A DNA stretch of 64,000 bases from Candidatus Latescibacterota bacterium. GTDB taxonomy: Bacteria > Latescibacterota > UBA2968 > UBA8231. The position numbers were made by a program, and so were the translations under genes. The notes below the pieces were generated by a model, which worked only from the letters and a program-made list of their open reading frames with translations, was not told where the DNA came from and ran no database searches. Location: NCBI GenBank assembly GCA_965197905.1, contig CBDAOB010000004.1, positions 896,001 through 960,000 on the forward strand, in the 5' to 3' direction. Positions 44,148 through 62,479 of this stretch are shown in pieces. Positions within the stretch are counted from its first letter, which is position 1, and every line of letters begins with the position of its first letter.

Positions 44148-44268
44148 TAAATAGATCCGCTAGCGCTTCGGGCCCGTTTCCCTCAGCCTGCCACCATATT
44201 CTTCGAGTGACCCCAAATCCCAACCCTCGCCGCGACTATCGATAACGGTGTTTATTTAGCCTATACTT
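44148..44268 (+). mobile_element. ~121-bp non-coding element ending in junction motif subfamily A
   Basis: Near-identical to the reverse complement of 61519-61647 from TAAATAGATCCGCTAGCGC through GGTGTTTATT; ends CCTATACTT. Confidence 0.85.
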
Positions 44269-44358
44269 CCGACCATGAAGGGACGGCGGTGCAGCTACGT
44301 TTCGCATTGCGCGACGCGAGTCTCTACTCGTTCTGATTCAAGGTACCGGAGGAATGAG
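44269..44358 (+). pseudogene. 3' 90-bp stump of a paralog of the downstream gene (direct repeat of 45816-45905)
   Basis: 84/90 identical; 4 of the 6 differences are synonymous third positions. Confidence 0.9.
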
Positions 44359-45904
44359 GACAACCGAGACAGAAAGGGTGAACGGATCGATGCGGGAGGG
44401 GCCTTTCAACGACACAGTGAACCCGGTGAAGACTTCTATGATACTCGTAATCAGTATGAAGGTCTGTCTATTGATGATCGCGACCACGGCGGCGACGGCG
44501 CAGTCGTTCACCGTGCCGGTCGGGGAACGGCAACTGTTCCTGGACGATGTCCCCATCGCCGAGATGGACGGTCTGAGGCGCTCGATGCACCAGGCGGTCA
44601 AGAAAGGCGCGGTGATCCGGCCCGACTACTTGGGGCAAGAACGCCATTTCTCGGTTCGCAACGCGCCGAACTGGGACCGCGAGCGCGAGGTGTTCAGATT
44701 TCTCGTGACTGAGGCCGCGGGGCCGAATACCTCGACTGTTTGGGAAAGCGACGACGGCCTGCACTGGGTGCGCGTGGGCACGTCGGACATGGTGACGTAC
44801 ACCGTCGTCTACGATCCCACCGATCCGGATCCGTCTCGCCGGTACAAGTCGATGAATCGCAGGCGAATCGCCGTCTCGCCCGACATGCTCACCTGGGAGG
44901 TGGTCGGCAATCCGAGAATCCCCGGCAGCGACGAGCACAATCTGTCCTTCGATGAGAAATCCCGAGTCTTCTTTTTTTCGGTCAAGAGAGGCGGGCCGTA
45001 TGGCCGCTACGGCCGCTCTCACGCCCTCTACACCAGCGAGGATCTGGCGCGGTGGACCAAGGTGGGGATAGCGGGAGAAGACTCGCTCTTTCACGCCGAC
45101 GACGAGGACCAGGAACACAACCGGGACGCTATCACGGCACTGATGGAAGAGCTGGTTGCCGATCCGAGACTCGCGGAGACCGACTTCTACGCAGAGGGCA
45201 ACTACAACGTCGACATCTACAACACGCCCGTTTTCCGCTACGAGAGCCATTACCTGGCGCTGCCAGCCATTCACCCCTCCATAACCATGGACCTGTCCGA
45301 TCCCAGTGACAATATCGCCTTAAAGATTCCTCAGCTGTGGTGGAGCCGCGACCTCCGGAACTGGACCAGGCCGGAGGATCGCTCGGACTTCATCACCCTG
45401 TCCCGTACGGAGAGCGGCGCCTATGACCTGGCCGTCGCGTTTCCACCATCGAGCCCGGTCATCAGGGGAGACGAGCTGTGGTTCTACTACGCTGGGGATG
45501 ACGGATTGGGCTGGCCTCCCAAGACCGGTCTCGACCTCAGGAGGACGGATTGGAAGTATTATCGGCCGGACAGGTCAGCGATCTGCCTGGCAGTGCTGCG
45601 CCGGGACGGATTCATGTCACTGGACGCGGGGGCGGGAGGGTCGGTGGTCACGAGGTCGTTCACCGTCCCCGGCCCCGAGCTGTTCGTCAACGTCGATGCA
45701 ACGGATGGCCAGCTGGTCGTCGAAGTGGTAGACGAGAGTGCAGTAGTGGCACGATCTGCGCCACTCCTGGGGGACCAGCCCAACGCCGCGGTAGCGTGGC
45801 AGGATGGGAACATAGCCGACCATGAAGGTACGGCGGTGCAACTGCGTTTTGCATTGCGCGACGCGAGTCTCTACTCGTTCTGGTTCGAGGTACCGGAGGA
45901 ATGA
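44354..45904 (+). CDS. GH32/GH43-like propeller protein with C-terminal beta-sandwich
   Basis: RQLFLDD, SDDGLHW, YDPTDPDPSRRYK, LWFYYAG and LRRDGFMSL motifs. Confidence 0.7.
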   Translation: MRTTETERVNGSMREGPFNDTVNPVKTSMILVISMKVCLLMIATTAATAQSFTVPVGERQLFLDDVPIAEMDGLRRSMHQAVKKGAVIRPDYLGQERHFSVRNAPNWDREREVFRFLVTEAAGPNTSTVWESDDGLHWVRVGTSDMVTYTVVYDPTDPDPSRRYKSMNRRRIAVSPDMLTWEVVGNPRIPGSDEHNLSFDEKSRVFFFSVKRGGPYGRYGRSHALYTSEDLARWTKVGIAGEDSLFHADDEDQEHNRDAITALMEELVADPRLAETDFYAEGNYNVDIYNTPVFRYESHYLALPAIHPSITMDLSDPSDNIALKIPQLWWSRDLRNWTRPEDRSDFITLSRTESGAYDLAVAFPPSSPVIRGDELWFYYAGDDGLGWPPKTGLDLRRTDWKYYRPDRSAICLAVLRRDGFMSLDAGAGGSVVTRSFTVPGPELFVNVDATDGQLVVEVVDESAVVARSAPLLGDQPNAAVAWQDGNIADHEGTAVQLRFALRDASLYSFWFEVPEE

Positions 45905-45911
45905 GAGCCGC

Positions 45912-46994
45912 TCAACGAGTCGCCGAGCCGTAGCGCTGGCGATAGGCGTCCAGCTTTGCCTTCAGCTTCGAGCTGTCCAGGACCGCGCGGTTGACGACGG
46001 AAACGGGCGCTTCACCGCGCCTGACGTCGAGAGCTGATTCTGCGCACAGCTCGCTGCCCAGACGAATCATTTCGTCGGTAATGCCGAGGGCGTGCGGCGT
46101 CAGGTTCACATTGTCCAGCGCCAGCAGAGGATCGTCCGGATCGATGGGCTCGGGATCCAGCGCGTCGAGGCCGGCCCCTCTGATCTGCTCTGCGGACAGG
46201 GCGCGGACCAGCGCCTGCTGATCGACAATCGCGCCGCGCGCGACATTGACCAGATAGGCCGATGGCTTCATCAGCCGCAGCTCCTCAGCGCCGATGAGAT
46301 GTCGCGTTTCCTCGCCGAGGGGGCACAACACCACCACAAAGTCCGACTGCGACAGCAGGGCAGGCAAATCGACCCGCTCAATGTCGTACTGGTCCGCCTT
46401 GGCCTCATCCAGGTACGGATCGCAGACGAGATGGCGCATCTCAAAAGGGCTGATGAGCGCGTAGAGATCCCGGCCGATGCTGCCAAAGCCCAGGTAACCG
46501 ATCGTTTTGCCGCTCAACCCAGTCCCGACATTGGCTAGCGTCCCACCCTCCCCCCACCGTCCATTGTAGACGAGCCTGGACTTAAAAAAAAGCCTTGTGC
46601 TCAGGGCCAGGATATGCGTCAGAGCCGCCGTGGCCATGGAACGACGGACACTACCGGGTGTCGTGGCCACAATGATACCAGCGTCGGTGCAGACATCCAG
46701 GTCAACAGTGTCGAAACCGGCGCCAAAGCGGACGATGGCGCTGCAACGTTCCACACCGGCCACACTTTCGCGAATGACGCGACGGCCGCCGGCCAGCACA
46801 ACATCAAACTCGTCGAGGATTTTGGGGTCGACGGGCCCCGCGTCAACCGGGAATGGAGCGATTTCGACGCCGGGCGTACTTTCCAGCATCAGGCGCGCCG
46901 ACTCGGTGGCCATGATGTTGTAGTAAATACCATCGTCCGTGAGTCCGACGCGAAAGGCAACCTTTTGATCCATCTCAATTATAGCCTCGGCCAT
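45912..46994 (-). CDS. D-isomer-specific 2-hydroxyacid dehydrogenase
   Basis: GAGFD, GFGSIG, NVARG, LDALDPEP and LTPH motifs. Confidence 0.9.
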   Translation of the reverse strand: MAEAIIEMDQKVAFRVGLTDDGIYYNIMATESARLMLESTPGVEIAPFPVDAGPVDPKILDEFDVVLAGGRRVIRESVAGVERCSAIVRFGAGFDTVDLDVCTDAGIIVATTPGSVRRSMATAALTHILALSTRLFFKSRLVYNGRWGEGGTLANVGTGLSGKTIGYLGFGSIGRDLYALISPFEMRHLVCDPYLDEAKADQYDIERVDLPALLSQSDFVVVLCPLGEETRHLIGAEELRLMKPSAYLVNVARGAIVDQQALVRALSAEQIRGAGLDALDPEPIDPDDPLLALDNVNLTPHALGITDEMIRLGSELCAESALDVRRGEAPVSVVNRAVLDSSKLKAKLDAYRQRYGSATR

Positions 46995-47053
46995 TCTATC
47001 TACCTCCTAAATTTCGCGCGGCCACAACACCTTGCTCGACCAAGAGAACTCCG

Positions 47054-47944
47054 ATGATGCCACCGGACCTCAAGTCCGAATTCGAGTCCAATGGATACCT
47101 AAAGGTTCCCCAGGCGCTGGAACCTGAGGATCTCTCGGTCCTGATCGCATGTGCGGACCGGCTGATCGACGAATTTTCGGGGAAGCTGAAATCGGATGGA
47201 CAGTTGAAGTCGGACTACAGATCCGAGTCTTTCGACAGCCGAATCGTCTCCATCCTCCAGGAAAGTGGAGAACCGCAACCCCACTGGACACGCTATTTCT
47301 TCGGTCCGGAACTCCATTCGATCGTCACCAGTCCACGCCTCTTGAATGTGCTTTCGCCTCTGGTGGGTCCAGAGATCCTGTTCAACGGAGGCTGTCAGCT
47401 GCGTTCCAAACCGCCCACGCGGTTTCATGACCAGCTGAGCAATCTGCCCTGGCATCAGGACACCCAGTACTATGGGGAGATTACGCAGCATCTGGACATC
47501 GTTACGGTTTGGATTCCCCTTGTGGACGTGGACGAATCGAACGGTTGCCTTTGGATCATCCCCGGCAGCCATCGGTGGGGATTACTACATGGCGCCAGAG
47601 ACCACGAGCAGAATATGAGGACACGAGAGAACGTGGAAAAACGCGGCGAACCAATCTCGATTCCGATGAAAACCCGGGACATCCTCCTGTTTCACAATCT
47701 CACATTTCACTCCTCCAGAGAAAACCGTACCCAGAGGGCCCGATGGAATGTAGACATTCGGTTCATGGCAAACCCAGCCTGCCGAATCCTATCCGATGAG
47801 GAGAGGGAGGCGCAGAAATTCCTGGCGGAAAAAATGAGGAAGTCAAAAAAGCCGTCTCTTGTTGTGCAGGGAAAAGGTGCGGGTGTAAGCTGGGAGGACT
47901 GGCGGAAGAGTTACCCTGGTCGGCTTCAGACTCTGGGTGACTGA
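47054..47944 (+). CDS. PhyH-family dioxygenase
   Basis: FESNGYL, PWHQD, WIPLVD..NGCL..IPGSH and TFHSS motifs. Confidence 0.92.
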   Translation: MMPPDLKSEFESNGYLKVPQALEPEDLSVLIACADRLIDEFSGKLKSDGQLKSDYRSESFDSRIVSILQESGEPQPHWTRYFFGPELHSIVTSPRLLNVLSPLVGPEILFNGGCQLRSKPPTRFHDQLSNLPWHQDTQYYGEITQHLDIVTVWIPLVDVDESNGCLWIIPGSHRWGLLHGARDHEQNMRTRENVEKRGEPISIPMKTRDILLFHNLTFHSSRENRTQRARWNVDIRFMANPACRILSDEEREAQKFLAEKMRKSKKPSLVVQGKGAGVSWEDWRKSYPGRLQTLGD

Positions 47945-47969
47945 CGCTGTCAATCAACCGCTCCCGCCA

Positions 47970-48665
47970 TCATCGCCACTCACACAGTGCCTTCACATAC
48001 GCCCGTCCGACCAACCGTTTCCCCTGCTCGAGATATGGCTGGTAGTGTCCTGCCAGAATGCAGTCCACCTCCATGGCCGTGAGTTTCTTGAGCGACGCAA
48101 TATACGTCGGTTTGTCGCAGTCCTCGCCTCCCTGCCATCCGAGCTCCGGAGTGAATCCGGTGTCCTTCGACATTACGACGTCGCCGACGAACCAGACGAT
48201 TTTCCCCCGGTGCTCCAGCTGATAGATGATGCATCCGTCCGTGTGACCGGGCGCGTGAATGACGTCGAAACGCAGTCCGCAGATGTCGATGGTCTCGTTG
48301 TCCGAGACCACGCGATCGACTTTGCAGGGCGGTAGGTCGAATCCCGCCGCGTATGGGACGGTTCGATTGTCGGAGAGTTCGATGCCCTCCGCGTCGCTCG
48401 GACCCGCAAAGACCGCAGCACCTCTCTCTCGAATCGCGGCGGCATTCCCGATATGATCGTAATGGCTGTGCGTCAGCAGGAGCCCGCCTACCTGGTCGAG
48501 CGAGATGCCCCAGGTCTCGGCGCGTGCATCGGCAAGTTCGAGTTCTTCGGGGAGCGTTCCCGCGTCTACTATGACGTTGCCTTCCGGCCCGACCACGAGA
48601 TAGAAATTCGCGTGGTTTGCGTAGGCGAAACCGTCGAGGAGGTAGATGTCGGGTAGGATCTGCAC
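47970..48665 (-). CDS. MBL-fold metallo-hydrolase
   Basis: THSHYDHIG, PGHTDG, GD and AGH motifs. Confidence 0.9.
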   Translation of the reverse strand: MQILPDIYLLDGFAYANHANFYLVVGPEGNVIVDAGTLPEELELADARAETWGISLDQVGGLLLTHSHYDHIGNAAAIRERGAAVFAGPSDAEGIELSDNRTVPYAAGFDLPPCKVDRVVSDNETIDICGLRFDVIHAPGHTDGCIIYQLEHRGKIVWFVGDVVMSKDTGFTPELGWQGGEDCDKPTYIASLKKLTAMEVDCILAGHYQPYLEQGKRLVGRAYVKALCEWR

Positions 48666-48721
48666 GGATCAGGTTGCGATGCGCCATGTGCGGATTTGAA
48701 GCAGTCGGCTCGTGCCCGTTG

Positions 48722-49609
48722 TCATCCCCGCTGATTCCAGTCGGCGCCGAGTTCGTCGAACTGGGACTGAAGCGATTCGACAACCTCTTCGGGAAGCGGA
48801 CCGGCGGATGCCGTTTCGATGTTCGCTTTGGCGTTTTCCAACTTGGTCGTTCCCACGATGGCGGTGTCGATTGCGTCGTTGGAGAGGGTGAAGCGCAGGG
48901 CCAGTTCGATGCCGTCTTCCGGCGCGCCGTCAGGAAGGGTGATCTGCTTGGAGCGGTCCCAATAGGCGTCGGCGTAGGTGTACGGGGACGCCGATTTCCG
49001 GATGGCGCCGTTGGCGATCGGTCGTTTGGCGATGACGCCCATTCCCGCTGCGATGGCTGATGGAAGAACCTCGTATCGCGCTTTTTGGTCGACGAGGTTA
49101 TAGGAAGTCTGAAGGGTCGAGAAGACGCCCATACGGATCGCCTCGAGGGCATCCTCACCGTCACCGCTGTAACCAACGTAACGGACCTTACCCTCTTCCT
49201 TCGCTGTGAGAACGGCTTCTACCGCCTCGCCTGCCTTCAGGACGTCGACGGAGCAAGTATGCAGTTGCATCAGGTCGATCCGGTCCGTTTTCATCCGGAC
49301 GAGCGAGCGGTCGATGCTTTCTCGAATGAGACCCGCCGTCCACGGTTCGCCGGTAGCGTCTCCGGTGACGTGGCCGCACTTCGAGGCGAGGACGAATTCA
49401 TCCCGTCGACCACTGACGAATTTCCCGATCAGTTCTTCCGACTCACCGTAGCATGCCGCCGTGTCGAGTAAAGTCGCACCGGCGTCCAGGAAGCCGTTCA
49501 AGAGCTCATCGACTTGCCCCTCCGTTACATCTTCGATACCGATCCGCGCGCCGCCGAATGCGAGTCGCGTAACTTCCAGGTCCGTGTTTCCGAGCGTGCG
49601 AGATTCCAT
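48722..49609 (-). CDS. Aldo/keto reductase
   Basis: MESRTLGNTDLEV, DTAACYG, SKCG, IDLMQLH and GKVRYVG motifs. Confidence 0.92.
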   Translation of the reverse strand: MESRTLGNTDLEVTRLAFGGARIGIEDVTEGQVDELLNGFLDAGATLLDTAACYGESEELIGKFVSGRRDEFVLASKCGHVTGDATGEPWTAGLIRESIDRSLVRMKTDRIDLMQLHTCSVDVLKAGEAVEAVLTAKEEGKVRYVGYSGDGEDALEAIRMGVFSTLQTSYNLVDQKARYEVLPSAIAAGMGVIAKRPIANGAIRKSASPYTYADAYWDRSKQITLPDGAPEDGIELALRFTLSNDAIDTAIVGTTKLENAKANIETASAGPLPEEVVESLQSQFDELGADWNQRG

Positions 49610-49617
49610 GTCGTGGC

Positions 49618-49700
49618 CTATTCGAAGAGGTTGTTGAACAAGATTGCCGTACCTGAGAGTCCGTGCAAGTCGACGGCGTGCGTCCCGGCGGGACGGCGGG
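49618..49700 (-). pseudogene. Possible internal stump of a PhyH-like gene
   Basis: HAVDLHGLSGTAILFNNLFE* resembles the PhyH 'G.AGT..LFN' strand. Confidence 0.35.
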
Positions 49701-49748
49701 GGATCTTGCGCAAGGACGTAATCGGCCCTATTCCTGTGGAATGCTGAC

Positions 49749-51263
49749 GTGCGCCAGAACCCCATGATGGCCCTTACTGTGGCAGCGGAGAACGTCTTGG
49801 CAAAGCAGACCAGCGGCGAGGGTTCCCTGGACATCGGCTCCCGATTGGAGCTGTTCGTTGATGACTACCTGATAGGCGAGCTGCTTGGGACTCGACTCGT
49901 CCTCCACTACCCTCGTCCGGCAGAAGTGGCCCTGAGATTCGATCGGTCCTGGGAGGGTGCCTTCTGTGGCTACGTGACCGTGCTCCACGACGGCGACATT
50001 TACCGGATGTACTACCGGGGAATACCCATCGCTAGGCCGGACGGAAGCCTTGACGAGGTGACCTGTTACGCCGAGAGCCGTGACGGGATCCACTGGGAGA
50101 AGCCCGATCTGGGGCTGTTCGAGGTCGCAGGGACGCGGAAGAACAACGTCGTTCTGGGCTCTGAGTATGCGCCCGTGCCCCACAACTTCATCGCCTTCGT
50201 GGACACTCGACCAGGGATTCCTTCCTCCCAGAGATACAAGGGCCTGGGGGGCATGTTCCCCATATCCGAGGAGCAGCGCTTCAGCGACGGCCTCCTGGGC
50301 TTCACCTCCGCGGACGGGATCCGATGGAGTCTGATCCAGCAGGCACCACTGATCGGTCTCTCGCTCCACGAATTCACCGACACCACTCCCAGCCCGACCT
50401 TCTGGTCGCCACACGAAGGTTGCTACGTCTGCTACGTTCGGGCGTGGAGAAGGGATCCGAAGGAACCTCCCCATTACGAGGGTTGGACCGGGAACGTGCG
50501 CTGGGTCGGTCGTACCACCTCCGAGGATTTCCTCAACTGGACTCCGGTTCAGATGATGGACCCCGGGGACGATCCGCTGGAGCACATCTACACCAATCAG
50601 ACCAGCCCCTACTTCCGGGCTCCCCACATCTACCTCGGCGTGGCTGCTCGTTTCCTGCCAGACCGTCAGGTGGTGAGTGAAGAGCAGGCTCAGAAGCTCC
50701 AGGTCGACCCCAAGTATTTCCACGACTGCTCGGATGCTGTCCTGCTCACGAGCCGGGGCGGAACCCGCTACCAGCGTGCCTTCCTTGAGGCTTTCATGCG
50801 CCCGGGCATCGGTCTACAAAACTGGACGTCCCGTACCAACTACCCTGCTCTGAACCTGGTCCCCACGGGAACTGAGGAAATCTCCCTCTACGTCCAGCAC
50901 AAGTACGGCCAACCTGGCCACGAGCTCAGGCGATACACTCTGAGAACAGACGGCTTAGTGTCGGTAAATGCACCCTACGGGGGCGGAGAGTTTCTGACCC
51001 GAACCCTGAGATTCAGTGGAAGCGAACTGGTCGTAAACCTCTCGACCTCTGCTCCTGGTGGCCTCCGGGTGGAAATCCAGAGTCCAGGTGGCCAGCCGAT
51101 TACCGGCTATGCCCTCGACGACTCCGACCAACTCATAGGAAATGAGATCGAGCGGGTCGTCACTTGGAAGGGGAACCAGGACGTGGGGCCGCTCGCTGGC
51201 AAGCCGGTCCGCTTGCGCTTCGTGATGAAGGACGCAAATCTATACTCCCTGAGGTTCAGATAG
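49749..51263 (+). CDS. GH32/GH43-like propeller protein with C-terminal beta-sandwich
   Basis: LELFVDD, YAESRDGIHWEKP, SADGIRW, LRTDGLVS and VRLRFVMKDANLYS motifs. Confidence 0.75.
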   Translation: MRQNPMMALTVAAENVLAKQTSGEGSLDIGSRLELFVDDYLIGELLGTRLVLHYPRPAEVALRFDRSWEGAFCGYVTVLHDGDIYRMYYRGIPIARPDGSLDEVTCYAESRDGIHWEKPDLGLFEVAGTRKNNVVLGSEYAPVPHNFIAFVDTRPGIPSSQRYKGLGGMFPISEEQRFSDGLLGFTSADGIRWSLIQQAPLIGLSLHEFTDTTPSPTFWSPHEGCYVCYVRAWRRDPKEPPHYEGWTGNVRWVGRTTSEDFLNWTPVQMMDPGDDPLEHIYTNQTSPYFRAPHIYLGVAARFLPDRQVVSEEQAQKLQVDPKYFHDCSDAVLLTSRGGTRYQRAFLEAFMRPGIGLQNWTSRTNYPALNLVPTGTEEISLYVQHKYGQPGHELRRYTLRTDGLVSVNAPYGGGEFLTRTLRFSGSELVVNLSTSAPGGLRVEIQSPGGQPITGYALDDSDQLIGNEIERVVTWKGNQDVGPLAGKPVRLRFVMKDANLYSLRFR

Positions 51264-52158
51264 GAGCAGAGCCGCCGACTCGTCCCCGGGTCAGCGGGTG
51301 TCGCTGCTTCGCCCACTCGTACCGTTCGGCGTACGACTGGCGCGCGCCGACGGCGTCGAAATGTTCCCGCTCGGCCTCGGTCCTGGCCTTCAGTTCCGCG
51401 AGCGGGTCGATCATGGCCCTGATGCGGGGGATGTCGCTGCTCGCAAAGGGCTCGACGGGATCGTAGATGCTACCCCTGTGGTTGTACCGCATGAAGGACG
51501 CGATCTCTTCGTCCGTCTCCGGCCATGCGGCGAAACGCAGCTTGAGATAGCGCCGGCCGGGCTGCATGCCGTACACGCCGTGGTAGATCTTCTGGGTGAA
51601 GAAGACGATATCACCCGGGTCGGACTCAACGACAACACCTGGGACGTCCGTGGGGCTGAGCCCGTAGACCTTCTGAGTGGTGTCCTCTTCCTGCTCGTTG
51701 AGCGGAAGGAGGTCGTCATAAAGGGAGGGTCTGTGTGACCCCGGGATGACACGAAGCGCCCCGGTGTCGCCCCTGAGCTTCTCTAGGTAGAGGTGGAAGC
51801 TGTATGTAGTGGCGTGAGGCTCGCCGGGTCGGTCCGAGTGCCATCGATGCTCGCCCGTGCCGATTACACCTGAATAGGACAGGCTACCGCCAGACCCGTT
51901 CCAGACAAAACGCGGTCCCAGCAGCTCCTCGACCGTGCCGAATATCCGGTCGTCAACGAGCATCCGCGTAGCCACCGGGCTCTTCTCTATGATGTCCTCA
52001 ATGCCCTGGTTCTCTCCTGGCGGTCCACCTCCCCTCTGCTCCGCGAACAGCTTGTCCACTTCCTGGCTGAGCGACTCCATCTCCTCGGCCGAAAACAGCT
52101 GCCTCAAGCGGATGAACCCAAAGTCGTAGAAGTGGGACTTCTGCTGCGGTGTGATCAT
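51256..52158 (-). CDS. PhyH-family dioxygenase
   Basis: FYDFGF, WHSD, GALRVIPGSH and PGDIVFF..IYH motifs. Confidence 0.9.
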   Translation of the reverse strand: MITPQQKSHFYDFGFIRLRQLFSAEEMESLSQEVDKLFAEQRGGGPPGENQGIEDIIEKSPVATRMLVDDRIFGTVEELLGPRFVWNGSGGSLSYSGVIGTGEHRWHSDRPGEPHATTYSFHLYLEKLRGDTGALRVIPGSHRPSLYDDLLPLNEQEEDTTQKVYGLSPTDVPGVVVESDPGDIVFFTQKIYHGVYGMQPGRRYLKLRFAAWPETDEEIASFMRYNHRGSIYDPVEPFASSDIPRIRAMIDPLAELKARTEAEREHFDAVGARQSYAERYEWAKQRHPLTRGRVGGSAPI

Positions 52159-52186
52159 CTCTGCGTTCCTTCGGGCTGCGGTCGAA

Positions 52187-53638
52187 CTACACCTCCGGAA
52201 GCAGCGCGTCGTCGTCTGTTTCTTGCTGCCACTGCTGCAACAAAGTGGTCATGCTCGAGATGCGATCCTTCTGGCCGGCGTCGTCGTACAGGTTGTTTTC
52301 CTCGGTGGGATCTTCGTTCATGTCGTAGAGCTCGCATTGATCGACGGTGCTCAGATTGAGCTTCCATCCATCGCCCGAAATCACCGTGCGCCACGGTTGC
52401 CAGGAGGGCCAGGGAACACCGGCTCCGGCTCGAATCAGCGGCCCATTAGTTTCAATGAACACAGCGTTCTCTTCGAGGGAAGTTTCACCGCGGAGCACCG
52501 GTTCGAGACTCTTTCCTTCCAAACCGGAAGGCGGCGGCACACCCATCAGACCCAGGAGGGTGGGCACCAGGTCGATCTGACTCATGTGCCCGGCTATCTG
52601 TTTGTATTCATCTGTAATCCACGGCACCCGCATCAACAGCGGCACCTTGATCGACTCCTGATAGAGCACCTCCTTGTGAAGCATCCCGTGTGATCCCATC
52701 ATCTCCCCATGGTCGCTGGTGTAGACGACGATGGTGTTGTCGGCGACGCCAGACTCGCTCAGCGCTTCGAGGATCGGCGCCATAGCTCGATCCACACTGG
52801 AGATAGCCTCCCAATAGCGGGCGCGTAGTCGCAGCCAGCCGGCTTCGTCCCCTAGGTCCTCACCGTCGATTTCGGGAAGATCCCCGTAGAACTCCGCCTT
52901 CTTCTGGTGGTAGAGCGAAGCATTTGCCGGGGGCCCTCTCAAGAAATGAGGTTCCCGCGGCAGCTTGGCCGGATCGTAAAGGCTGCTGGGCCGGCTGGGA
53001 AGCGGGCTGTGGGGGTCCATGAATCCGGCGTACAACACGAACGGTCGTTCGCCGTTCTCTCTGATGAAACGGGCGGCTTCGCGACCCACGTACGCGTTCT
53101 TGCTCATCTCCCACGGCAAATCGGCCGTCATTTCACGAGAGAAGATCCTGGCGGCCATCCATTCAACGTCTGGTGTGTACCCATTCTCGAGCAGGAAGTG
53201 GTGGTAGTCGCTGAAGCGCGACAGATACTCCCTTTGAGTGAAGAAGAGGCGGTAGTAATCCTCCATGCCGACCCAGTGTTCGAACCCGTGCTGCGGGAAG
53301 ATCTCGTCGCCCAGGTGCCATTTCCCGATGTAGCCACATTCGTATTCGGACGGCACCATCTCGGCAATAGTGGGCGTACTTGGTTTGAGAGGAATGTTGA
53401 GATGTATGCAGCCGTTGGTATGGGGATAGAGGCCGGTCATGATGCTGGATCGCGCCGGCGTGCATAAAGGCTGCGTCACGTAGGCATTCTGGAAGACAAA
53501 GCTGTCATTCGCCAGTGCGTTGAGGTTGGGTGTCTGGATGAGGTGGTTGCCATAGCAGCGCATCGTGTCGAACCGCTGTTGGTCGGTAAAGATGAACAGC
53601 AGGTTTGGCTTCGTCGGAGGTCTATTAATCTGGGCCAT
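52187..53638 (-). CDS. Sulfatase (formylglycine type)
   Basis: FTDQQR, CTPARSSIMTG (CxPxR), GKWHL and SDHGEM motifs. Confidence 0.93.
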   Translation of the reverse strand: MAQINRPPTKPNLLFIFTDQQRFDTMRCYGNHLIQTPNLNALANDSFVFQNAYVTQPLCTPARSSIMTGLYPHTNGCIHLNIPLKPSTPTIAEMVPSEYECGYIGKWHLGDEIFPQHGFEHWVGMEDYYRLFFTQREYLSRFSDYHHFLLENGYTPDVEWMAARIFSREMTADLPWEMSKNAYVGREAARFIRENGERPFVLYAGFMDPHSPLPSRPSSLYDPAKLPREPHFLRGPPANASLYHQKKAEFYGDLPEIDGEDLGDEAGWLRLRARYWEAISSVDRAMAPILEALSESGVADNTIVVYTSDHGEMMGSHGMLHKEVLYQESIKVPLLMRVPWITDEYKQIAGHMSQIDLVPTLLGLMGVPPPSGLEGKSLEPVLRGETSLEENAVFIETNGPLIRAGAGVPWPSWQPWRTVISGDGWKLNLSTVDQCELYDMNEDPTEENNLYDDAGQKDRISSMTTLLQQWQQETDDDALLPEV

Positions 53639-53722
53639 TGCCGTACTTCCCTTGACGGTCAGAGTGGTTCGGGATACTAGGCAGATTAAGGGCGGTCTCG
53701 GTTATGCGGTCAAGGAGCGCCC

Positions 53723-53782
53723 GCCACAAACTCGCCTACCTTGCCGCTATTGACGATAACGCGTTTTATTCGCCCTATCCTT
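53723..53782 (+). repeat. Junction motif, subfamily B copy
   Basis: GCCACAAACTCGCCTACCTTGCCGCTATTGACGATAACGCGTTTTATTCGCCCTATCCTT; ends 42 bp before ATG 53824. Confidence 0.9.
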
Positions 53783-53823
53783 TTGCCAGCATTGCATGGG
53801 AACAGTCTCAGGAGGAGAAACCG

Positions 53824-54873
53824 ATGGTTCCGCATCTCAGAGAGGCTCTTGACGCTGAAACTGTCTATCGCGTTGACCTGACCAACGGCACGAACATGTC
53901 CGGGTGCGTTGTTCATCAAGACGACCAGCGCATCCGACTCAGGCTGAACGACGGTTTCGCAACCACGATTCCCTGGTCGCGGATTCACGCTCTGTCCGAT
54001 GGGGACGGATCAAACCAACGTGTGATCCAGGCCTTACCGACCGATCCTGGATCCAAAGACTACAAAACACTTGCATTGAAGACGGTAGATGAAGTTACGA
54101 TCCGCAAGAACCCGACGACGCAACTACACCTGCGTGCCGTCGAATGGCCCGATCAGACATTCCTGCTCTGGTTTCCTGAAGTAATCGTGCGCGACGTCTG
54201 GGCGCAATGGGACGCTGAAGTGGCGCGCCAGGACTTCGTCACGACTGAAGACGGCTCACTGGTTTGGATGAGGGACCTGCCCGGGACCGCGATCGTGAAG
54301 GCGACACTGACCCCTCGCGATTATTCCGTAGATCTCGAAATCCGAGTCAAAGCGAAACCGGATCACGAGATTCCTATGGCAGTGCCGCAGAATTGCTTGC
54401 TCTTTTCGGCGGCTCCCGACTTTGCTTGCAACGACTACAGCCGGATCTTGGTCCGCGTCAAAGAACAGTGGAGGTCATTGCTGGATCTGCGAACGGCCCC
54501 GGGCGCACGGGCGGAACAACACCCGGTCAGCGTGATCTATCGCGAGGGGTTTCTCAAGTCCAGTCACGGCAACATCTGGAAGGGCAGATCGGAGGAGGGG
54601 ACGATGCCGGGATGTGTCGATCATCCTCTCATCGCTTGTGTTTCCAAGTCTGGCGACCGAACGGTCGCGACCGCCTCGGAAGAGTATCAGGGGGTCTTCC
54701 ACAACCACCAGCTGCCTTACTTGCTCTGCATTCACAGCTCTCAAACCGGAGTTCGCATTCCCGAAGGAGAAGAGGCCATATTCCGCCAAGTCATCTGGTT
54801 TGTCGATGGCGGCGTCGAAGAAGCGGTCGCCGCATTTGATCGCGATGTTGCCGACAAGGTTCTCAATCCTTAG
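53824..54873 (+). CDS. Hypothetical protein
   Basis: AGGAGG RBS; 349-aa ORF; no family recognised. Confidence 0.65.
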   Translation: MVPHLREALDAETVYRVDLTNGTNMSGCVVHQDDQRIRLRLNDGFATTIPWSRIHALSDGDGSNQRVIQALPTDPGSKDYKTLALKTVDEVTIRKNPTTQLHLRAVEWPDQTFLLWFPEVIVRDVWAQWDAEVARQDFVTTEDGSLVWMRDLPGTAIVKATLTPRDYSVDLEIRVKAKPDHEIPMAVPQNCLLFSAAPDFACNDYSRILVRVKEQWRSLLDLRTAPGARAEQHPVSVIYREGFLKSSHGNIWKGRSEEGTMPGCVDHPLIACVSKSGDRTVATASEEYQGVFHNHQLPYLLCIHSSQTGVRIPEGEEAIFRQVIWFVDGGVEEAVAAFDRDVADKVLNP

Positions 54874-54934
54874 GACGACCGCACCCTTGGGAGCGATCGC
54901 CATGTTGCTCGTATTCTGAACAGGAGATGGCATT

Positions 54935-55930
54935 GTGAAACTCTTTCTGAACGTCGGCGATGATCCCTCTGCGGAAAGACTGAGATTCGCGCGTCAGATC
55001 GGCGTCGACGGGGTCATGGCAGCGCCCGGCCCTCAGTCACCCGACCTCGGTTACCACGAGCTGCAATTCCTCCAGGATTTGAGGCGGCACATCGAGTCGT
55101 TCGATCTCGAGTTCTACGGCATCCGGCTGCTGCCGTGGACGTGGACCTACAAATGGCAGCTCGGCCTGCCGGGCGGCGACGAGCAGCTTGAGCGCATGGC
55201 GACGACGGTGCGCAACATCGGCGCGGCAGGGATCGACATGCTGGTGTACAACATGCACGCCCTGCGGATCTATCGAACCAGCCCCGACGCTGCCTGGCGC
55301 GGCGGCGCCACGGCCACGGCATTCGACTACGACGACGTCCGCGACCTGCCGTTGATGGCGGGTGGACCTGGAACCGACGCGGATCTCATTCCCGAGAGCC
55401 ACCGCAGGCCGATCGGAGATGAGGAGATGTGGGGCAATCTCGCGTACCTGCTCAAGGCGGTCGTACCCGTGGCCGAGGGAGCGGGGGTGCGTCTCGCCCT
55501 GCACCCGGATGACCCTCCGGTAGCGTCGATCGCCGGCGTGGCTCGGATCATGCGCAGCCCCGAGGCGTTCCGGCGCATCATCGACATGGAGCCCAGCCCG
55601 AGCCACGGCATCGGTCTGTGTCATGGGTGCTTCGGCGAGATGGGGGCGGACGTTCCCGCCGAGATCCGCTACTTCGGCAGTCGGCAGCGCATCTTCTTCG
55701 TCGACTTCCGCAATGTCCGCGGCGTCACCGAGCGCTTCTCGGAGACCTTTCCCGACGACGGCGATGTCGACATGGCCGAGTGCATGAGGGCCTTCAAGGA
55801 GGTCGGCTTCGACGGACCGGTTTCGCCCGACCATACTCTCAAGATCGAAGGCGACAGCGACTGGGGGCATCGCTACTGGGCGTATGCCATCGGTCATACA
55901 CGTGGACTGGCACAGGCGATGGGAATCTGA
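54935..55930 (+). CDS. uxuA: Mannonate dehydratase
   Basis: YNM, LALHPDDPP, FRNVRG, DGDVDM and PDH motifs. Confidence 0.8.
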   Translation: MKLFLNVGDDPSAERLRFARQIGVDGVMAAPGPQSPDLGYHELQFLQDLRRHIESFDLEFYGIRLLPWTWTYKWQLGLPGGDEQLERMATTVRNIGAAGIDMLVYNMHALRIYRTSPDAAWRGGATATAFDYDDVRDLPLMAGGPGTDADLIPESHRRPIGDEEMWGNLAYLLKAVVPVAEGAGVRLALHPDDPPVASIAGVARIMRSPEAFRRIIDMEPSPSHGIGLCHGCFGEMGADVPAEIRYFGSRQRIFFVDFRNVRGVTERFSETFPDDGDVDMAECMRAFKEVGFDGPVSPDHTLKIEGDSDWGHRYWAYAIGHTRGLAQAMGI

Positions 55931-55992
55931 TGGACGGCGGAGTGTCAGTCCGCTGTTCACCGAAGGGCACGTAGCAGTCAAGGAGGGTCAGC

Positions 55993-56757
55993 ATGCCAGG
56001 AATCCTGGAAGATAAGGTCGCTTTGGTAACAGGCTCAGGGTCTGGAATAGGCCGCGCTGCCGCTCTAGCTTTTGCTAAAGAAGGAGCTAAGGTCGTCGTG
56101 GCGGATGTGAATCCCAATGCCGGCGAGGAGACGGTGGGCAAGATCGACGAAGCGGATGGACATGCCACCTTCATCCACGTCGACGTGTCGAAGGCGACCG
56201 CGGTCGAGGAGATGGTCAACAAGGCCGTCGAGGTCTACGGCAAGCTGGACTGCGCCCACAACAACGCTGGCATTGAGGGTATCACTGTTCCTACCCACGA
56301 ATACCCCGAGGAGGTCTGGGATCGCGTCATAACCATCAATTTGAAAGCGGTGTGGTTATGTATGAAGTACGAGATTCAACAGATGCTCAGGCATGGAGGT
56401 GGAGCCATCGTCAACACCTCGTCTATAGCCGGCCTGGTTGGCACCAGTAGCGGCATATGCGCCTACATTGCTAGCAAACATGGTGTCGTTGGTATCACCA
56501 AGACCGCAGCGCTGGAGTACGCTCAACAAGGCATTCGCGTCAACGCCGTTTGCCCAGGGCTCACGGAAACACCAATGGCTGACCGATTGCTGGACGGCGA
56601 CCCACAGGCTGCCGCGCGGGTTGCCGCCAACTATCCTCTAGCGCGTTTCGGGGCTCCAGAAGAGGTTGCCGAGGCCGTGATATGGCTGTGCTCGGATGCG
56701 TCATCCTTTGTCACTGGACACGCCCTGTCTGTCGATGGAGGTTATGTAGCCCAGTAG
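55993..56757 (+). CDS. SDR family oxidoreductase
   Basis: TGSGSGIG, HNNAG, YIASK and VDGG motifs. Confidence 0.92.
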   Translation: MPGILEDKVALVTGSGSGIGRAAALAFAKEGAKVVVADVNPNAGEETVGKIDEADGHATFIHVDVSKATAVEEMVNKAVEVYGKLDCAHNNAGIEGITVPTHEYPEEVWDRVITINLKAVWLCMKYEIQQMLRHGGGAIVNTSSIAGLVGTSSGICAYIASKHGVVGITKTAALEYAQQGIRVNAVCPGLTETPMADRLLDGDPQAAARVAANYPLARFGAPEEVAEAVIWLCSDASSFVTGHALSVDGGYVAQ

Positions 56758-56916
56758 CCGCATCTTTCATCTTTGAAGTCCGCGTCCCTCCTCTCCGCGC
56801 GTCGACAGCACTGTCAAGCGACGAAGCTGCTGTTGACCGCTTCAACAGCGACGTCGTGCCTGGTCGCCGAAACCACTATCGTCACCTGAGCACCCTGAGC
56901 ACAAAGGAGAGTACTG

Positions 56917-58422
56917 ATGTCGAAACAACCCGTACCCCAACCCTTTCTCGATTGGTTTGGGGTGTGGCCCGGTCAGGCTGGACGCGACGACCAAGGTCGC
57001 GCATGGCTCCAGGACCCGCCCCAGGGAATCCGTCTGAAGGTACAACCGGCGCGAAAGTCAGAAGTTTTCTTCAGGCCGACAAAACCTTGGGGACGCAACT
57101 CGATCAGCCACCCGTTTATCATTCTCGAGAATGGTCGCTGCCGCATGTGGTACCGCGAGACGGTGGCGTCAGGCGACGACCTCTTCAATCTGGATCGCTA
57201 TGCCGAAAGCGACGACGGTTTCGACTGGCAGTTTCCGGAATTGGGGTTGTACGAATTCGAGGGTTCGAAGGCGAACAACATCCTCTGTGACGGCGGCTTC
57301 TTCAACATTCACTCCGTTTTCAAGGATCCCACTGCCACACCCGAAGCACGCTACAAAGCGATCGAATCGAGGGGCCAGCTCTTTCGCCGCGGCAAACCAG
57401 TGCAGCTTTCCCAGCAGACCAAGCAGGAGATCCGCGAGGTCCGCAAGACGATGGAGCTGAACGGCTACAAACCAGAGGAGATTGACGCCGAGGCGGAGAT
57501 CCGCCACCAGGTGCGCGGTGCCGTCTCCCCAGACGGCTTGCGCTGGACCGCTCTGGACGAACCTCTGCTGGATACCGGACACACCCAGCTCGACACCCAG
57601 AACATCGCCGCCTTCGACGAGGACACCCGCGAGTATGTCGCTTTCCTGCGCGGCCAGCTGGATCGCCGGCGGTCCGTGCGGCGCACCGGCGGAAAGGAGT
57701 TTGGCAACTGGCATCCGACGCGATTGGTGCTCACCATCGACAGCCACGATGAACCGTTCGAGGACATCTACACCTCCGCCTATTGCCGTTGCCCGGGAAG
57801 CCGTCGCCATCTGATGTTCCCCACCATCTACCATCGCTTGTCATCCACCCTCGATATCCAGCTTGCCAGCAGTCACGACGGCTGGCTTTGGCGTCGCACG
57901 GAGCGGGTTCCGATTGTTACTCGGGAGAGCGGAGACCGGGAGTACGGAGCTATCTACGCCAGCCCCAACCTCGTGCCTCTGGGCGATGGATGGGGCATCC
58001 CCTACATGGGCATCTACCCTCGCCACGACGGCGGCGGCCGCTTTGCCACCTACGAACATCCGGTCTCGGAGTACCGCTGGGCCATGTGGAAGCCGGACCG
58101 ATTGGTGGCGCTGGAGGCAGACAGCGAGGGGCAATTCACCACCGTCGAACGCGTTTGTGGAGGACGGGAGCTGCGCTTGAACTTCCATACGGAGCAGGGT
58201 GGTTGGGTGAAAGTGGGGATCGCCCATCGTCCGGGCACGCCAGCTTCGCCTCTGCGAGAACTAGAAGGATTGGGTCTCGACGATTGCGACGTTTTAGCGG
58301 GCGACGAAGTGTCGAAGGTGGTCAGTTGGAACGGAAGGGCCAACCTCGGAGAGTTGGAGGGACAGCAGCTTTCAGTCAGGGTACGAGTCGCCCGTGCCCG
58401 GATTTTTTCTATAGCGCTCTAG
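56917..58422 (+). CDS. GH32/GH43-like propeller protein with C-terminal beta-sandwich
   Basis: YAESDDGFDW, FKDPTATPEARYK, SPDGLRW and LDTQN motifs; paralog of 13403-14998. Confidence 0.7.
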   Translation: MSKQPVPQPFLDWFGVWPGQAGRDDQGRAWLQDPPQGIRLKVQPARKSEVFFRPTKPWGRNSISHPFIILENGRCRMWYRETVASGDDLFNLDRYAESDDGFDWQFPELGLYEFEGSKANNILCDGGFFNIHSVFKDPTATPEARYKAIESRGQLFRRGKPVQLSQQTKQEIREVRKTMELNGYKPEEIDAEAEIRHQVRGAVSPDGLRWTALDEPLLDTGHTQLDTQNIAAFDEDTREYVAFLRGQLDRRRSVRRTGGKEFGNWHPTRLVLTIDSHDEPFEDIYTSAYCRCPGSRRHLMFPTIYHRLSSTLDIQLASSHDGWLWRRTERVPIVTRESGDREYGAIYASPNLVPLGDGWGIPYMGIYPRHDGGGRFATYEHPVSEYRWAMWKPDRLVALEADSEGQFTTVERVCGGRELRLNFHTEQGGWVKVGIAHRPGTPASPLRELEGLGLDDCDVLAGDEVSKVVSWNGRANLGELEGQQLSVRVRVARARIFSIAL

Positions 58423-58445
58423 CTCGCCTCTAAAAGCAGCGAGGC

Positions 58446-59630
58446 TCAGTCGAAGGTCACCGCCTCTTCGCTTTCGATCTTCGCGGGGTCGATCTCGTAT
58501 CCGAAGCCGGGGTTGTCACTCACAGTAAGCAAACCGTCTGCGAACTGCGGGCTTTCGTTGAGGAAGAAATAGCTCAGGGCCGCATGTTTGATCAGCATCT
58601 CCACGTACGGCGTGTGGATGGGCGACTGCACCGATGAGAACGCCATGCCGGCCGGCGATACTCCCTGGTGGCAGATGGTGATGACGTCGTAGCTGGTGGC
58701 GAGGGCGGCAATCTTCAGCACCTCCGACAGGCCGCCGGACCAATTGAGGTCGGGCTGGATGATGTCCAATGCCTCGGCGTCCAGGAAACGTTTGAATCCC
58801 CAGCGGGTGTACTCGTGCTCGGCGCCGGCGATCGGGATGTTCGTCTTCTCGCGGATCTTGCGGTAGGAGTCGATCCGATCCGGCATCGCCACCTCCTCCA
58901 GCCAGCGCGGGCGGTACTCGGCGATCTGCTCGGCCAGCCGCGTCACGTAGTTAACATCCATCGACTGCCAGCAGTCGAGCATGATGTCGTCTTCATCGCC
59001 AAGCGCCTCGCGCACCGTTTTCACCATCTGCACGTTGAGCTTGAGTCCCTCAGGACCGGACATGGGTCCGTGCCGAAAGAACCACTTTTGCGCTTTGTAG
59101 CCACGGGACTTCATCTCTTGGGCGCGGTCGCGGACGAGATCAAAGTCGGTGACCGAATATCCGAGCATGCTGGCGTAAGCGGGAATGGTTTTTTGCGTCG
59201 GACCGCCGAGCAGACGATATACCGGCTGTCCTAGCCATTTGCCCTTGAGATCCCACAGGGCGTTATCGATGACCGAGATTCCCATCATCGGCTCACCCTG
59301 GCGACCATGTACCGAGGAGCGAAACATTACGTCCCAGAGATACTCGGTGGCCAAAGGGTCTTTGCCGATGAGCAGTGACGCCAGCTGCGAAACGTGAAAT
59401 GCGACGCCGTTTCCGACGGAGCCGCAGATTCCGGAGACGCCCTCGTCGGTCTCGATCTGCAGGAAGGTCTCGGTAACGAGGAAGTGGCGATCGTCGGTTG
59501 GCTTACCCGGGCCGCGCGAGCGGAAGTCCGGGTAGATATCGAGCGGACGGACGAGTCGCTCCTCGAAGAACGGTCCGTCTACTTCCATCGTGCCGGACAA
59601 CCGGCGAAGACGAAGGTTGGTGATTTTCAT
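58446..59630 (-). CDS. Enolase-superfamily sugar-acid dehydratase (mandelate racemase/L-rhamnonate dehydratase-like)
   Basis: DNALWDLKGK, MLDCWQS, WLEE, AEHEYTRWG and QPD motifs. Confidence 0.88.
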   Translation of the reverse strand: MKITNLRLRRLSGTMEVDGPFFEERLVRPLDIYPDFRSRGPGKPTDDRHFLVTETFLQIETDEGVSGICGSVGNGVAFHVSQLASLLIGKDPLATEYLWDVMFRSSVHGRQGEPMMGISVIDNALWDLKGKWLGQPVYRLLGGPTQKTIPAYASMLGYSVTDFDLVRDRAQEMKSRGYKAQKWFFRHGPMSGPEGLKLNVQMVKTVREALGDEDDIMLDCWQSMDVNYVTRLAEQIAEYRPRWLEEVAMPDRIDSYRKIREKTNIPIAGAEHEYTRWGFKRFLDAEALDIIQPDLNWSGGLSEVLKIAALATSYDVITICHQGVSPAGMAFSSVQSPIHTPYVEMLIKHAALSYFFLNESPQFADGLLTVSDNPGFGYEIDPAKIESEEAVTFD

Positions 59631-61282
59631 CTGGTCGAATTTCTCTTACCGGGTTGGCGCAGAAGATCGTCTCTGAGCCAGGAGACCCAGCTCATGACCT
59701 CCGTCTGCTGCGCCACCAGGCAGACTTCAAGCATGGCCGGACGTCCCGCGTCGAGGGCTCGATTCAGGGCCGGTTCGAATTCTGTCACGTCTTCAATGCG
59801 CTCGGCGTAAGCCCCGAAGGATCTGGCGAATTCGACGAAGTCCGGATTGTGAAGTTCCGTATCGATCGTGCGCCCATCACACTGTTTGAGCTGCGCTCCC
59901 TTGATCGCCGACAGAGCGCCGTCATTGACGACGATCGTGACGACGTCGATGCCATAGCGCATGGCTGTCGCCAGCTCCGGACTGCCCATGAGAAATCCGC
60001 CGTCGCCGCTGAAGCAGATGACCGGCCGATCGCGATGGGCCACCTTGGCGCCGAGCGCCGCGGGAAAGGCGTAGCCGAGGGACACACCGATGCATGGATA
60101 GAGGAACGTCTGCGGATCTGACACGGGATACTCGGCAAACGTCGAGTAGCCGATGCCGTGAACATCGACGGCGAGGATGCCGTCGTCTGGCAGGCACTGG
60201 CGAATCTCCGGCAGCAGGGGCAGGGGCAGTTGCGAGTCAAAAGGCTTTCGCAACCTGGTCAGCGCTGCCGTCCAGGCAGAGGATGATTCCCGCGGGGTCA
60301 CCTGTTGTGTCAGGGCTGCGAGGGATTCTCTGAGATTGCCCGCAACGCCGACATCACACTCGTATTCTCGGCCGATTTCCGACGGCTCCGGGTCGAACTG
60401 AATGAGGGGCCGGGGAAAGTCACGGCTCCAGGAGGCGGAATCGATGGAGGTGAACCGGCAGCCAATCGCCAGCGTGCAGTCCGCCACCTCGACTGCTTGC
60501 TGGGCGAGATAGCCGCGGACGTCCCGCAAAGCGAGTGGATGGCCCTCGTCGATTACACCCTTGCCGCGCCGGGTTACCATGACTGGAGCCGCCAATTTTT
60601 CGGCGAGCTGTCTCAGTTCCGGTCCGGCACCGGCGGCGATGACGGCGTGTCCGGCAAACAGGATGGGCGTTTGGGCTTGCTCCAGGGTCGCCAGGGCCGT
60701 GTCGACGGCCGCCGAATCGGGGGATGCTACGATTTCGGCAGGGGCGAAAGCCGGAATCCTTTCCGTGCACTCCGCCGCCATGACATCCAGGGGAAACTCG
60801 AGCACTGCCGGTCCGGGACGACGGGAGCGCATTGCCCGGAAGGCCTCTTCCACAAGGATGGGGATTTCGGCTGCAGAACTCGCTGCGGCGCAGTATTTCG
60901 TTATCGGATCGAAGAACCGCATCTGATCGAGACCGTGGAACATCTTGGCCTGGTCTCGACCGCTGTGGGCGGTGTCACTCTGTCCGGTTATCAGGAGGAC
61001 GGGGACGCAGTCCGTGTAGGCCTCGAGAATGCCGGTAGAGGCGTTGCTGGCACCTGGGCCAGGCACGGTGAGGGCAACGCCAACATCGCCCGTCGACCTG
61101 GCGAAACCGTCAGCCATGACAGTCGCGGCGTACTCGTGGCGCACGAGATAGTGATCGATGACGCCATCGCCGAAGCGCTCGAGAGCGTCGTATATGCTCA
61201 GATTCTGGGTGCCCGGCATCCCGAAAACGACGCGAACACCCTGGGCCTTGAGGCATTCGATGAGGAGCTGGCCGCCGGTCAC
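59627..61282 (-). CDS. Thiamine-pyrophosphate-dependent enzyme (acetolactate synthase-like)
   Basis: FGMPG, RHE, GPGASN and GDGGF...VND motifs. Confidence 0.9.
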   Translation of the reverse strand: MTGGQLLIECLKAQGVRVVFGMPGTQNLSIYDALERFGDGVIDHYLVRHEYAATVMADGFARSTGDVGVALTVPGPGASNASTGILEAYTDCVPVLLITGQSDTAHSGRDQAKMFHGLDQMRFFDPITKYCAAASSAAEIPILVEEAFRAMRSRRPGPAVLEFPLDVMAAECTERIPAFAPAEIVASPDSAAVDTALATLEQAQTPILFAGHAVIAAGAGPELRQLAEKLAAPVMVTRRGKGVIDEGHPLALRDVRGYLAQQAVEVADCTLAIGCRFTSIDSASWSRDFPRPLIQFDPEPSEIGREYECDVGVAGNLRESLAALTQQVTPRESSSAWTAALTRLRKPFDSQLPLPLLPEIRQCLPDDGILAVDVHGIGYSTFAEYPVSDPQTFLYPCIGVSLGYAFPAALGAKVAHRDRPVICFSGDGGFLMGSPELATAMRYGIDVVTIVVNDGALSAIKGAQLKQCDGRTIDTELHNPDFVEFARSFGAYAERIEDVTEFEPALNRALDAGRPAMLEVCLVAQQTEVMSWVSWLRDDLLRQPGKRNSTR

Positions 61283-61518
61283 AACTCAACTTCTCTGGGG
61301 CCCCGCGGGAAACCGTAGGGGAGGTCGGTGCGATCGGCGTGCAGCGGCCAACTCTGCCCGCCTAGATTCTGAAACGACTCGTGGTGGCCACAGAGCTCCC
61401 CATCCTCAATCAGCATCATACCGATCACCTGCGCCCGGGGCGAAGTATTGTTGCCCTGTAGATAGAGGATATCCTGTTGTTTCTGACTGTTTTGCTGCAC
61501 TATATCGGAGATCCCAAG
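61279..61518 (-). pseudogene. Collapsed chimeric remnant of a two-gene operon homologous to 31754-32992
   Basis: GISDIVQQNSQKQQDILYLQ..IEDGEL fused in frame to CGHHESFQNLGGQSWPLHADRTDLPYGFP. Confidence 0.88.
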
Positions 61519-61647
61519 ATTATAAGAAGAATAAACACCGTTATCGATAGTCGCGGCGAGGGTCCGTTCCGTGGGGATTTGGGGTCACTCGAAGAATATG
61601 GTGGCAGGCTGAGGGAAACGGACCCGAAGCGCTAGCGGATCTATTTA
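61519..61647 (-). mobile_element. ~129-bp non-coding element ending in junction motif subfamily A (TATAAT variant)
   Basis: Second copy of 44148-44268, with a small TCCGT duplication. Confidence 0.85.
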
Positions 61648-61778: not shown

Positions 61779-61788
61779 GGTCGGGCGT

Positions 61789-62433: not shown

Positions 62434-62479
62434 TCGAGGTACCCACTCCTTTTATAGATTGTTTCAGAATCCCCGGACG

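Follow-up and report, generated by a model that had tools for sequence, protein, structure and literature searches.

The remnant pair in the window

The window analysed here is a 64,000-nucleotide stretch of a Candidatus Latescibacterota genome (assembly GCA_965197905.1, contig CBDAOB010000004.1, positions 896,001 to 960,000); this genome, whose assembly is 91% complete, is denoted G000 below, with C3, C4 and C5 among its contigs, and the window lies on C4. It holds two near-identical non-coding repeats, inverted relative to each other and 17 kb apart, which abut cut genes. Judged by their sequence, the repeats are very probably oriIS remnants of ISCR-type transposons, a kind of rolling-circle element of the IS91 family, and they belong to a larger set of such remnants in the same genome (Table 1).

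The original prediction, read from the letters alone, described 44148-44268 (+) and 61519-61647 (-) as inverted near-copies, and the two indeed align at 90.7% over 118 nt (E 3e-42). It also took the repeat for a defined element of ~125 bp with two precise ends, of which only one proved to be fixed. Homology of the first copy to its sister copies extends beyond 44148 to about 44064-44071, including the last transposase codons and their TGA, and the two copies share a start at TAAATAG because the shorter one stops there. What had been read as a TCCGT duplication is really a deletion in the first copy, which is internally deleted relative to its sisters; the three closest of these retain CCCCACGGAACGGACCC. 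The end of the second copy is altered to CTTATAATCTT, which gives TCGATA-17-TATAAT. Its 3' end had been set at 61519 and probably lies at 61516: homology of the flank to a paralogue starts at 61515, so that the supposed Leu codon CTT would be the element's own end.

The flanks themselves had been read well. The end at 44268 stands against a mid-gene tail resembling the final 90 bp of the gene that runs to 45904, the DNA beyond the second copy resembles 31754-32125, and the EamA gene is cut at ...GARF, its 5' part forming the left flank of the second copy. The piece carrying this EamA fragment and a cyclophilin gene (61648-62479) is 76% identical to the genome's own locus at C4:1617349-1618156 and is evidently a foreign copy.

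Support for the junctions was drawn from Logan contigs of public runs (X1, X2, X5 and X9 among them; four compared for each copy) under a 31-letter rule, X1 possibly being the source sample of the assembly. The junction at 44064 is bridged in three of four runs (X1, X2, X5), that at 44268 in one (X1), and those at 61519 and 61647 in one (X2), with X1 a single letter short of the rule at 61647. In X1 and X5, further contigs exit the element at the same base (loose ends at 44269) into several other sequences. A recurrent 5' boundary at TAAATAG, considered as a candidate, was rejected: the joints in X2 and X9 are explained by known longer copies together with a contig spanning 61612-62509.

Nothing marks the repeat as a structured RNA or as the end of a DDE-type insertion sequence (IS). 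The window has no Rfam match at gathering score and no ARAGORN (tRNA) hit, folding of both copies and one sister copy on both strands was no better than for shuffled sequences (z 0.05-1.7), and inverted repeats of DDE type are absent. Taken alone, the two copies are ordinary transposon debris.

Table 1. Remnants of ISCR-type elements in the window and the features adjoining the two principal copies (negative offsets count upstream from the fixed 3' end).
Feature	Coordinates	Strand	Remarks
ISCR-type oriIS remnant, subfamily A2	44064..44268	+	last transposase codons, TGA 44078-44080, 188 bp to end CCTATACTT
Predicted promoter-like site, TCGATA-17-TATACT	44239..44267	+	outward, at extreme end; 9/12 consensus
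Cut gene tail, paralogue or allele of next gene	44269..44358	+	93% to 45816-45905; internal stop now
Intact gene facing away from oriIS end	44378..45904	+	no Pfam/NCBIfam match
Second oriIS remnant	61516..61647	-	5'-truncated at ~-130; 3' end 61516 (probable) to 61519
5'-truncated gene fragment	61282..61515	-	homologous to 31754-32125, 62% over 42 aa
Intact TPP (thiamine pyrophosphate)-enzyme gene facing away from second end	59627..61282		after the 61282..61515 fragment
Cargo between two co-oriented ends	61648..62479	-	intact cyclophilin gene 61789-62433 and EamA 5' fragment
oriIS end, 43 bp	62480..62522	-	same orientation as 61647 copy
oriIS end, subfamily A, ~50 bp	26062..26113	-	
oriIS end, subfamily B, ~30 bp	26169..26200	+	back to back with 26062..26113
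oriIS remnant, subfamily B	35157..35278	-	
oriIS end, subfamily B	53725..53782	+	
Start of 462-bp remnant (transposase C-terminus and oriIS)	63971..64000	+	ends past the window at C4:960434
Element scrap (transposase 3' region)	6370..6446	+	no oriIS end
Element scrap (-161 to -93)	18418..18487	+	no oriIS end
Transposase scrap, internal	28760..28828	+	no oriIS end

Identity of the repeats

Longer copies read directly into the C-terminus of an ISCR-typical transposase (CPDCGGRMKII...RAPP), and PF04986 lies directly upstream of 2/3 matches in G000; the 44064 copy retains only the last transposase codons and the 61647 copy none. PF04986 is present in 13 of the 31 genomes searched. The relatives compared were G002, G004, G015, G017 and G078, of which G078 and G004 are congeners. 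Full-length open reading frames (ORFs) of 486 aa occur in G015, score above the cut-offs of PF04986 and PF14319, and are 41.5% identical to plasmid IS91-family transposases over 91% of the full protein. The elements that carry them end in CCTATACGT, 224 bp past the stop codon. A plasmid IS91-family element (locus L100) ends in TTCCTATACGC / CCTATACGC, 244 bp past its stop, and the conserved 22-mer at the oriIS end of ISCR1 is given as GTGGTTTATACTTCCTATACCC / CCTATACCC (PMC13023784). In the four elements measured (G078 excluded), the oriIS end lies 188-244 bp past the stop, in the TTCCTATAC motif, and an HUH Y2 transposase gene stands upstream of the end, as fragments in G000 and as intact ORFs in G015 and, with HUH and tyrosine motifs, in G078. 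The original reading as a non-autonomous, IS91-like rolling-circle element has thus held, narrowed to the oriIS ends of ISCR-type elements.

Where the element stops could be placed from ten junctions with a right-flank homologue of at least 85% identity. At eight of them (one aligning ambiguously) the homologue does not match both bases that follow CCTATAC, and the other two are uninformative. The flank homologues place the cut two bases after CCTATAC, and therefore the target CTTG/GTTC of IS91 (PMC13181058), which marks IS91 sensu stricto (IS91, IS801, IS1294), is not kept here, the TT/TC after CCTATAC being element-derived in 8/10 junctions. The flanks, in which a precise end and a target tetranucleotide had been sought, yielded only the former. 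A blastn search of the remnant against plasmids gave no DNA match at E<=1, and no circular junctions were seen in the public contigs (contigs only). The elements in this genome are likely dead.

The remnant family in the genome

The repeats are more than the pair first noticed. An iterated profile search of G000 returned 30 matches, 12 of them full over 140 bp, and with an end model (threshold E<=0.01) 29 copies, the pair included, reach the 3' end, 15 of them within 196 kb of C4; the reversed genome, used as control, gave eight matches, all with E>2. The sequence CCTATAC at 31610-31617 and at C5:1344078 was taken as chance and excluded from the counts. The 3' end is fixed at CCTATACTT, in register with the oriIS of ISCR1, and the 5' ends lie anywhere between -36 and -864, with no peak. 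Neither a recurrent 5' end nor a terIS-like site was found among the copies, and a repeat scan found no terminal inverted repeats, there being no fixed 5' end. The terIS hairpin, expected upstream of the transposase gene, is gone from every G000 copy together with the 5' half. In the window the ends lie on both strands.

The core of the end, GATAA-N6-TTAT, has a 6-bp loop that varies independently of its arms (18 variants in 47 ends of G000 and G002), and apparent hybrids between subfamilies occur. Ends have also landed in older ends or element bodies (C3:305716, C4:990684, G078:1746375, G078:1760022). Short tandem repeats of the extreme end, either CCTATA repeats or 9-17-bp end duplications, are present at G078:C1:1793790, G000:C3:305716, G000:C4:990684 and L053, which suggests that joining recurred at the very end. 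In two genomes (G002:C1:2893653 and 3749767; L054 of G015) several oriIS ends break off at CGAT and run on into one shared sequence, CTCTTTAG.CGAA; two others run on into GGGGGTATCCATTTAAC. The added sequences may belong to other mobile elements with the oriIS core as their target. A pattern scan of metagenomes gave nine loci, and the 15 records found to carry this end motif all bear titles of Ca. Latescibacterota or Gemmatimonadaceae.

Rearrangement around the remnants

In G002 the genes of the window are widely scattered. The 17-kb interval between the two copies alone maps to at least six separate places there, with seams at 45903 and 47951 that carry no remnant, and is not a unit. All nine remnants tested lie within 250 bp of the edge of a syntenic block, where permutation gave a mean of 4.8 (p 0.003). 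On the other hand, when intergenic regions were compared with G002, synteny was broken in 6/8 regions with a remnant and 13/27 without one, a difference that is not significant (Fisher p 0.18). Remnants mark some seams, and most local seams carry none.

The DNA on the two sides of an end is unrelated in origin, as had been proposed. Among 34 copies tested, six have homologues of both flanks, and in none of the six are these adjacent; a simple insertion of a mini-element would have left contiguous flanks, and the clean empty site that had been looked for was found in 0/6.

Stacked arrays and possible outward promoters

In the relatives the ends are stacked. G078 has 18 ends in 68 kb, all on one strand (100 kb examined), a 58-kb stretch of G004 holds 12 matches of a single end type, all on one strand, as well as one end of the window's type, and G002 has four ends in 10 kb, with near-identical stubs followed by different right flanks at 5.655-5.665 Mb. 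The cargo in G004 consists of PhyH dioxygenases, a sulfatase, kinases and unknowns (21/32 ORFs with a Pfam match, several being shadow frames). These co-oriented stacks likely record repeated gene gathering. A bolder proposal, that ISCR ends here form an integron-like platform which collects one or two metabolic genes per round, in one direction, over 60-70 kb or more, losing the transposase and retaining the end, of 40-250 bp, to serve the following gene as a portable promoter, can be offered only tentatively.

The orientation of neighbouring genes was called with a crude coding model made for this analysis, and junctions of kin are not fully independent; on this basis, up to 700 bp downstream, the nearest intact gene points away from the end in 32/41 cases (p 4e-4; 58 ends examined, 17 without a call), as against 26/49 of the upstream genes. 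A looser test gave 47/59 against a control of 0.48, and 7/7 for the ends of the window, which lie on both strands. The ends of subfamily A form TCGATA-17-TATACT, and the oriIS of ISCR1 is described as holding working outward promoters (PMC6218425). The bias is confined to the downstream side and hence hints that an outward promoter has been kept; the chance that the ends act as promoters may be put at about even.

Origin of the stubs

One site shows erosion after insertion. G078 carries an intact 476-aa ORF (HUH motif NPHVHVL, RYVAR, RYHG) at a junction of TT with CAAATGCC, and at the same end-plus-flank junction G004, 98-99% identical around it, has only 86 bp of the gene and an internally deleted oriIS stub. 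At least some remnants therefore form by erosion after insertion, and the window's copies may have formed in the same way. In addition, in three pairs of copies the DNA leading up to the end is shared and the right flank is not (for C4:958727-960434 versus G002, 1,717 bp are shared at 95%), which suggests that upstream DNA is carried along with the end. The 462-bp remnant at the window's edge and its upstream cargo, a PHP gene (62727-63970), recur in this manner in G002 with a different right flank. One and the same cargo of 1.66 kb (99% identical) also stands between element pieces at G000:C5:668197-669857 and G002:C1:5662379-5664041, but in opposite orientation to the ends. That such cargo might be other IS elements was rejected, since the three cargos read are single ordinary genes.

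Taken together, the best overall explanation, which we hold with good confidence, is joining followed by erosion that leaves a promoter-like stub. A transposase likely attached the end CCTATACTT to new DNA, in many cases inside a gene; the rest of the element would later have been eroded or replaced from the upstream side, again likely; and the remaining stub is predicted to drive the next intact gene from an outward promoter. Formation by joining and then erosion, considered on its own, is reasonably probable. We infer catalysis of the joining by the HUH enzyme, one-ended carriage of upstream cargo, activity of the promoter and selection for it.

Several observations weigh against this explanation. 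The target tetranucleotide of IS91 is missing, leaving a weak YG bias (21/46 vs 0.16). No cognate full-length transposase was found: G000 has no tblastn match before residue 257-264 of two full-length queries, and among full-length database proteins the nearest share 66-68% identity with the C-terminal fragment. Full-length relatives also fall below the NCBIfam cut-offs, with 379 and 375 against 925 bits for ISCR clade Ia (NF052416) and 106 against 125 bits for IS91. With respect to the promoter, no -35 is evident at 17 bp in the G017-type end, which displays the same orientation bias (7/8 in G004), and therefore a promoter is not the sole reading of the bias, which itself depends on the crude gene calls and partly related junctions mentioned above. 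For IS801, moreover, most genomic fragments are ascribed to rearrangement, not transposition (PMC3189936).

That last view has its counterpart here in the possibility, less likely though partly compatible with joining and erosion, that ISCR elements inserted into an already plastic island that was then shuffled by general deletion, by end-joining and by homologous recombination between copies, with the ends of importance only as short homology. The frequent synteny breaks in remnant-free regions, the dispersal of the 17-kb interior with its two bare seams, and the three scraps without an end in the window all suit such passive debris. Yet the 3' end is base-exact in 29 copies while the 5' half of the gene survives nowhere in G000, remnants crowd at seams well beyond the permuted expectation, and genes are biased in orientation downstream only. 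A second hypothesis, to which we likewise give a minority share, is that the stubs were born short, through premature termination of rolling-circle transposition, as mini-elements re-mobilised in trans with upstream genes, and that the arrays were actively built as gene-capture platforms. Precedents exist: right-end derivatives of IS801 of 229-679 nt arose in over a quarter of events and such miniatures transpose in vivo (PMC3189936), the last 82 bp of IS91 are enough with the transposase in trans (PMC13181058), and ISCR28 is reported to have captured a gene sandwiched between two sequential oriIS (Yuan 2024 as cited in PMC12772301). The co-oriented stacks (18 in G078, 12-13 in G004), the three pairs with shared upstream DNA, the near-identical G002 stubs with different right flanks and the several sequences that follow one end in X1 and X5 also fit. 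A mini-element insertion would nonetheless leave an empty site, which none of the six testable copies has; at the site shared by G078 and G004 a full element was eroded; the copies have neither a recurrent 5' end nor a terIS-like site; same-strand stacking could reflect a replication-linked insertion bias (PMC3971601); and the G000 copies point both ways.

Two further explanations are far less credible. The core GATAA-N6-TTAT, with its inverted 4-bp arms, variable 6-bp spacer and arm/spacer mixtures between subfamilies, might be thought a dif-like XerCD site, the copies then being borders of pdif-type modules. This is very improbable: of the 11 positions of the XerD-arm motif, 3-8 are mismatched in the arms; homology of the flanks is lost not inside the spacer but 17 bp beyond it, at CCTATACTT; and the sequence upstream is a transposase gene. 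Scarcely any likelihood attaches to a discrete two-ended element of ~125 bp resembling a miniature inverted-repeat transposable element, to a 17-kb composite framed by the inverted pair, or to an assembly chimera. Two copies (61647 and G002:3764772) do start within ~5 bp of each other, but the 5' ends as a whole form a continuum; the interior of the supposed composite is scattered in G002, and both origin ends point inward, so that rolling-circle replication would proceed away from the interior (cf. PMC13181058). A chimera, which the original prediction had named as a possible artefact, is countered by the public contigs that bridge the junctions.

Comparison with known systems

The element type is known; its scale and setting are unusual. 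With ISCR1, the plasmid element L100 and NCBIfam clade Ia, the elements share the transposase type, an oriIS end 190-244 bp past the stop with CCTATAC plus 2 nt, the lack of terminal inverted repeats, and a right flank that varies and whose genes mostly point outward (PMC6218425). They differ in scoring below the clade Ia cut-off, in having no plasmid DNA match, in their chromosomal location with dozens of eroded copies, and in their metabolic cargo (PhyH, sulfatase, enolase-fold, dehydrogenases). Non-autonomous Helitrons and integron cassette arrays likewise accumulate gene-sized cargo between repeated ends; in contrast to these, we see no helicase-fused transposase, no integrase or attC structure, and no cargo borders that coincide precisely with gene borders. 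The miniature right-end derivatives of IS801/IS91 have in common with the stubs one fixed right end, a truncated left side and no transposase, but those of IS801 stop at a few tetranucleotides and use GTTC/CTTG-like targets (PMC3189936), whereas here the 5' ends are continuous, the target bias is a weak YG, and one stub derives from erosion. The ISCR28 sandwich, in which a remnant oriIS and another of the same orientation enclose a gene, matches the arrangement at 61516-62522; the source reports it for one resistance gene (PMC12772301), and in the relatives up to 18 ends stand in a row.

Most knowledge of ISCR elements stems from resistance plasmids and the spread of antibiotic resistance, and their mechanism of gene capture is largely inferred. 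The genomes studied here offer dozens of independent oriIS junctions, before/after pairs in close relatives and an intact transposase beside its own stubs, and thereby a base-precise end, an estimate of target bias, and a pair of enzyme and mini-end for the study of trans-mobilisation and outward promoters outside the clinic. We found no description of chromosomal oriIS stacks with metabolic cargo in the literature searched; subscription literature lay outside its scope, and absence from print is not established.

Neighbouring genes and further observations

The product of the intact gene at 44378-45904, called a propeller in the original prediction, is plausibly one. Its orthologue in G002 is 94% identical and lies at a different locus, and the gene belongs to a large paralogous family without a Pfam match (22 matches in G000, 25 in G002). 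The nearest Atlas clusters with a Pfam annotation are BNR/sialidase-like, and one top match is auto-named GH32-like.

The window further contains a set of single catabolic genes, including at least five of the PhyH family; most of this set recurs in G002 at 93-99% identity in a different order. At 26062-26200 two ends of different subfamilies stand back to back, each facing its own gene, and the DNA between them is 88% like 23139-23206. A comparison of 18418-19496 with L033:14823-15850 places the scrap before a PhyH module in G000 and a similar scrap after it in G002, as if the segment had been permuted.

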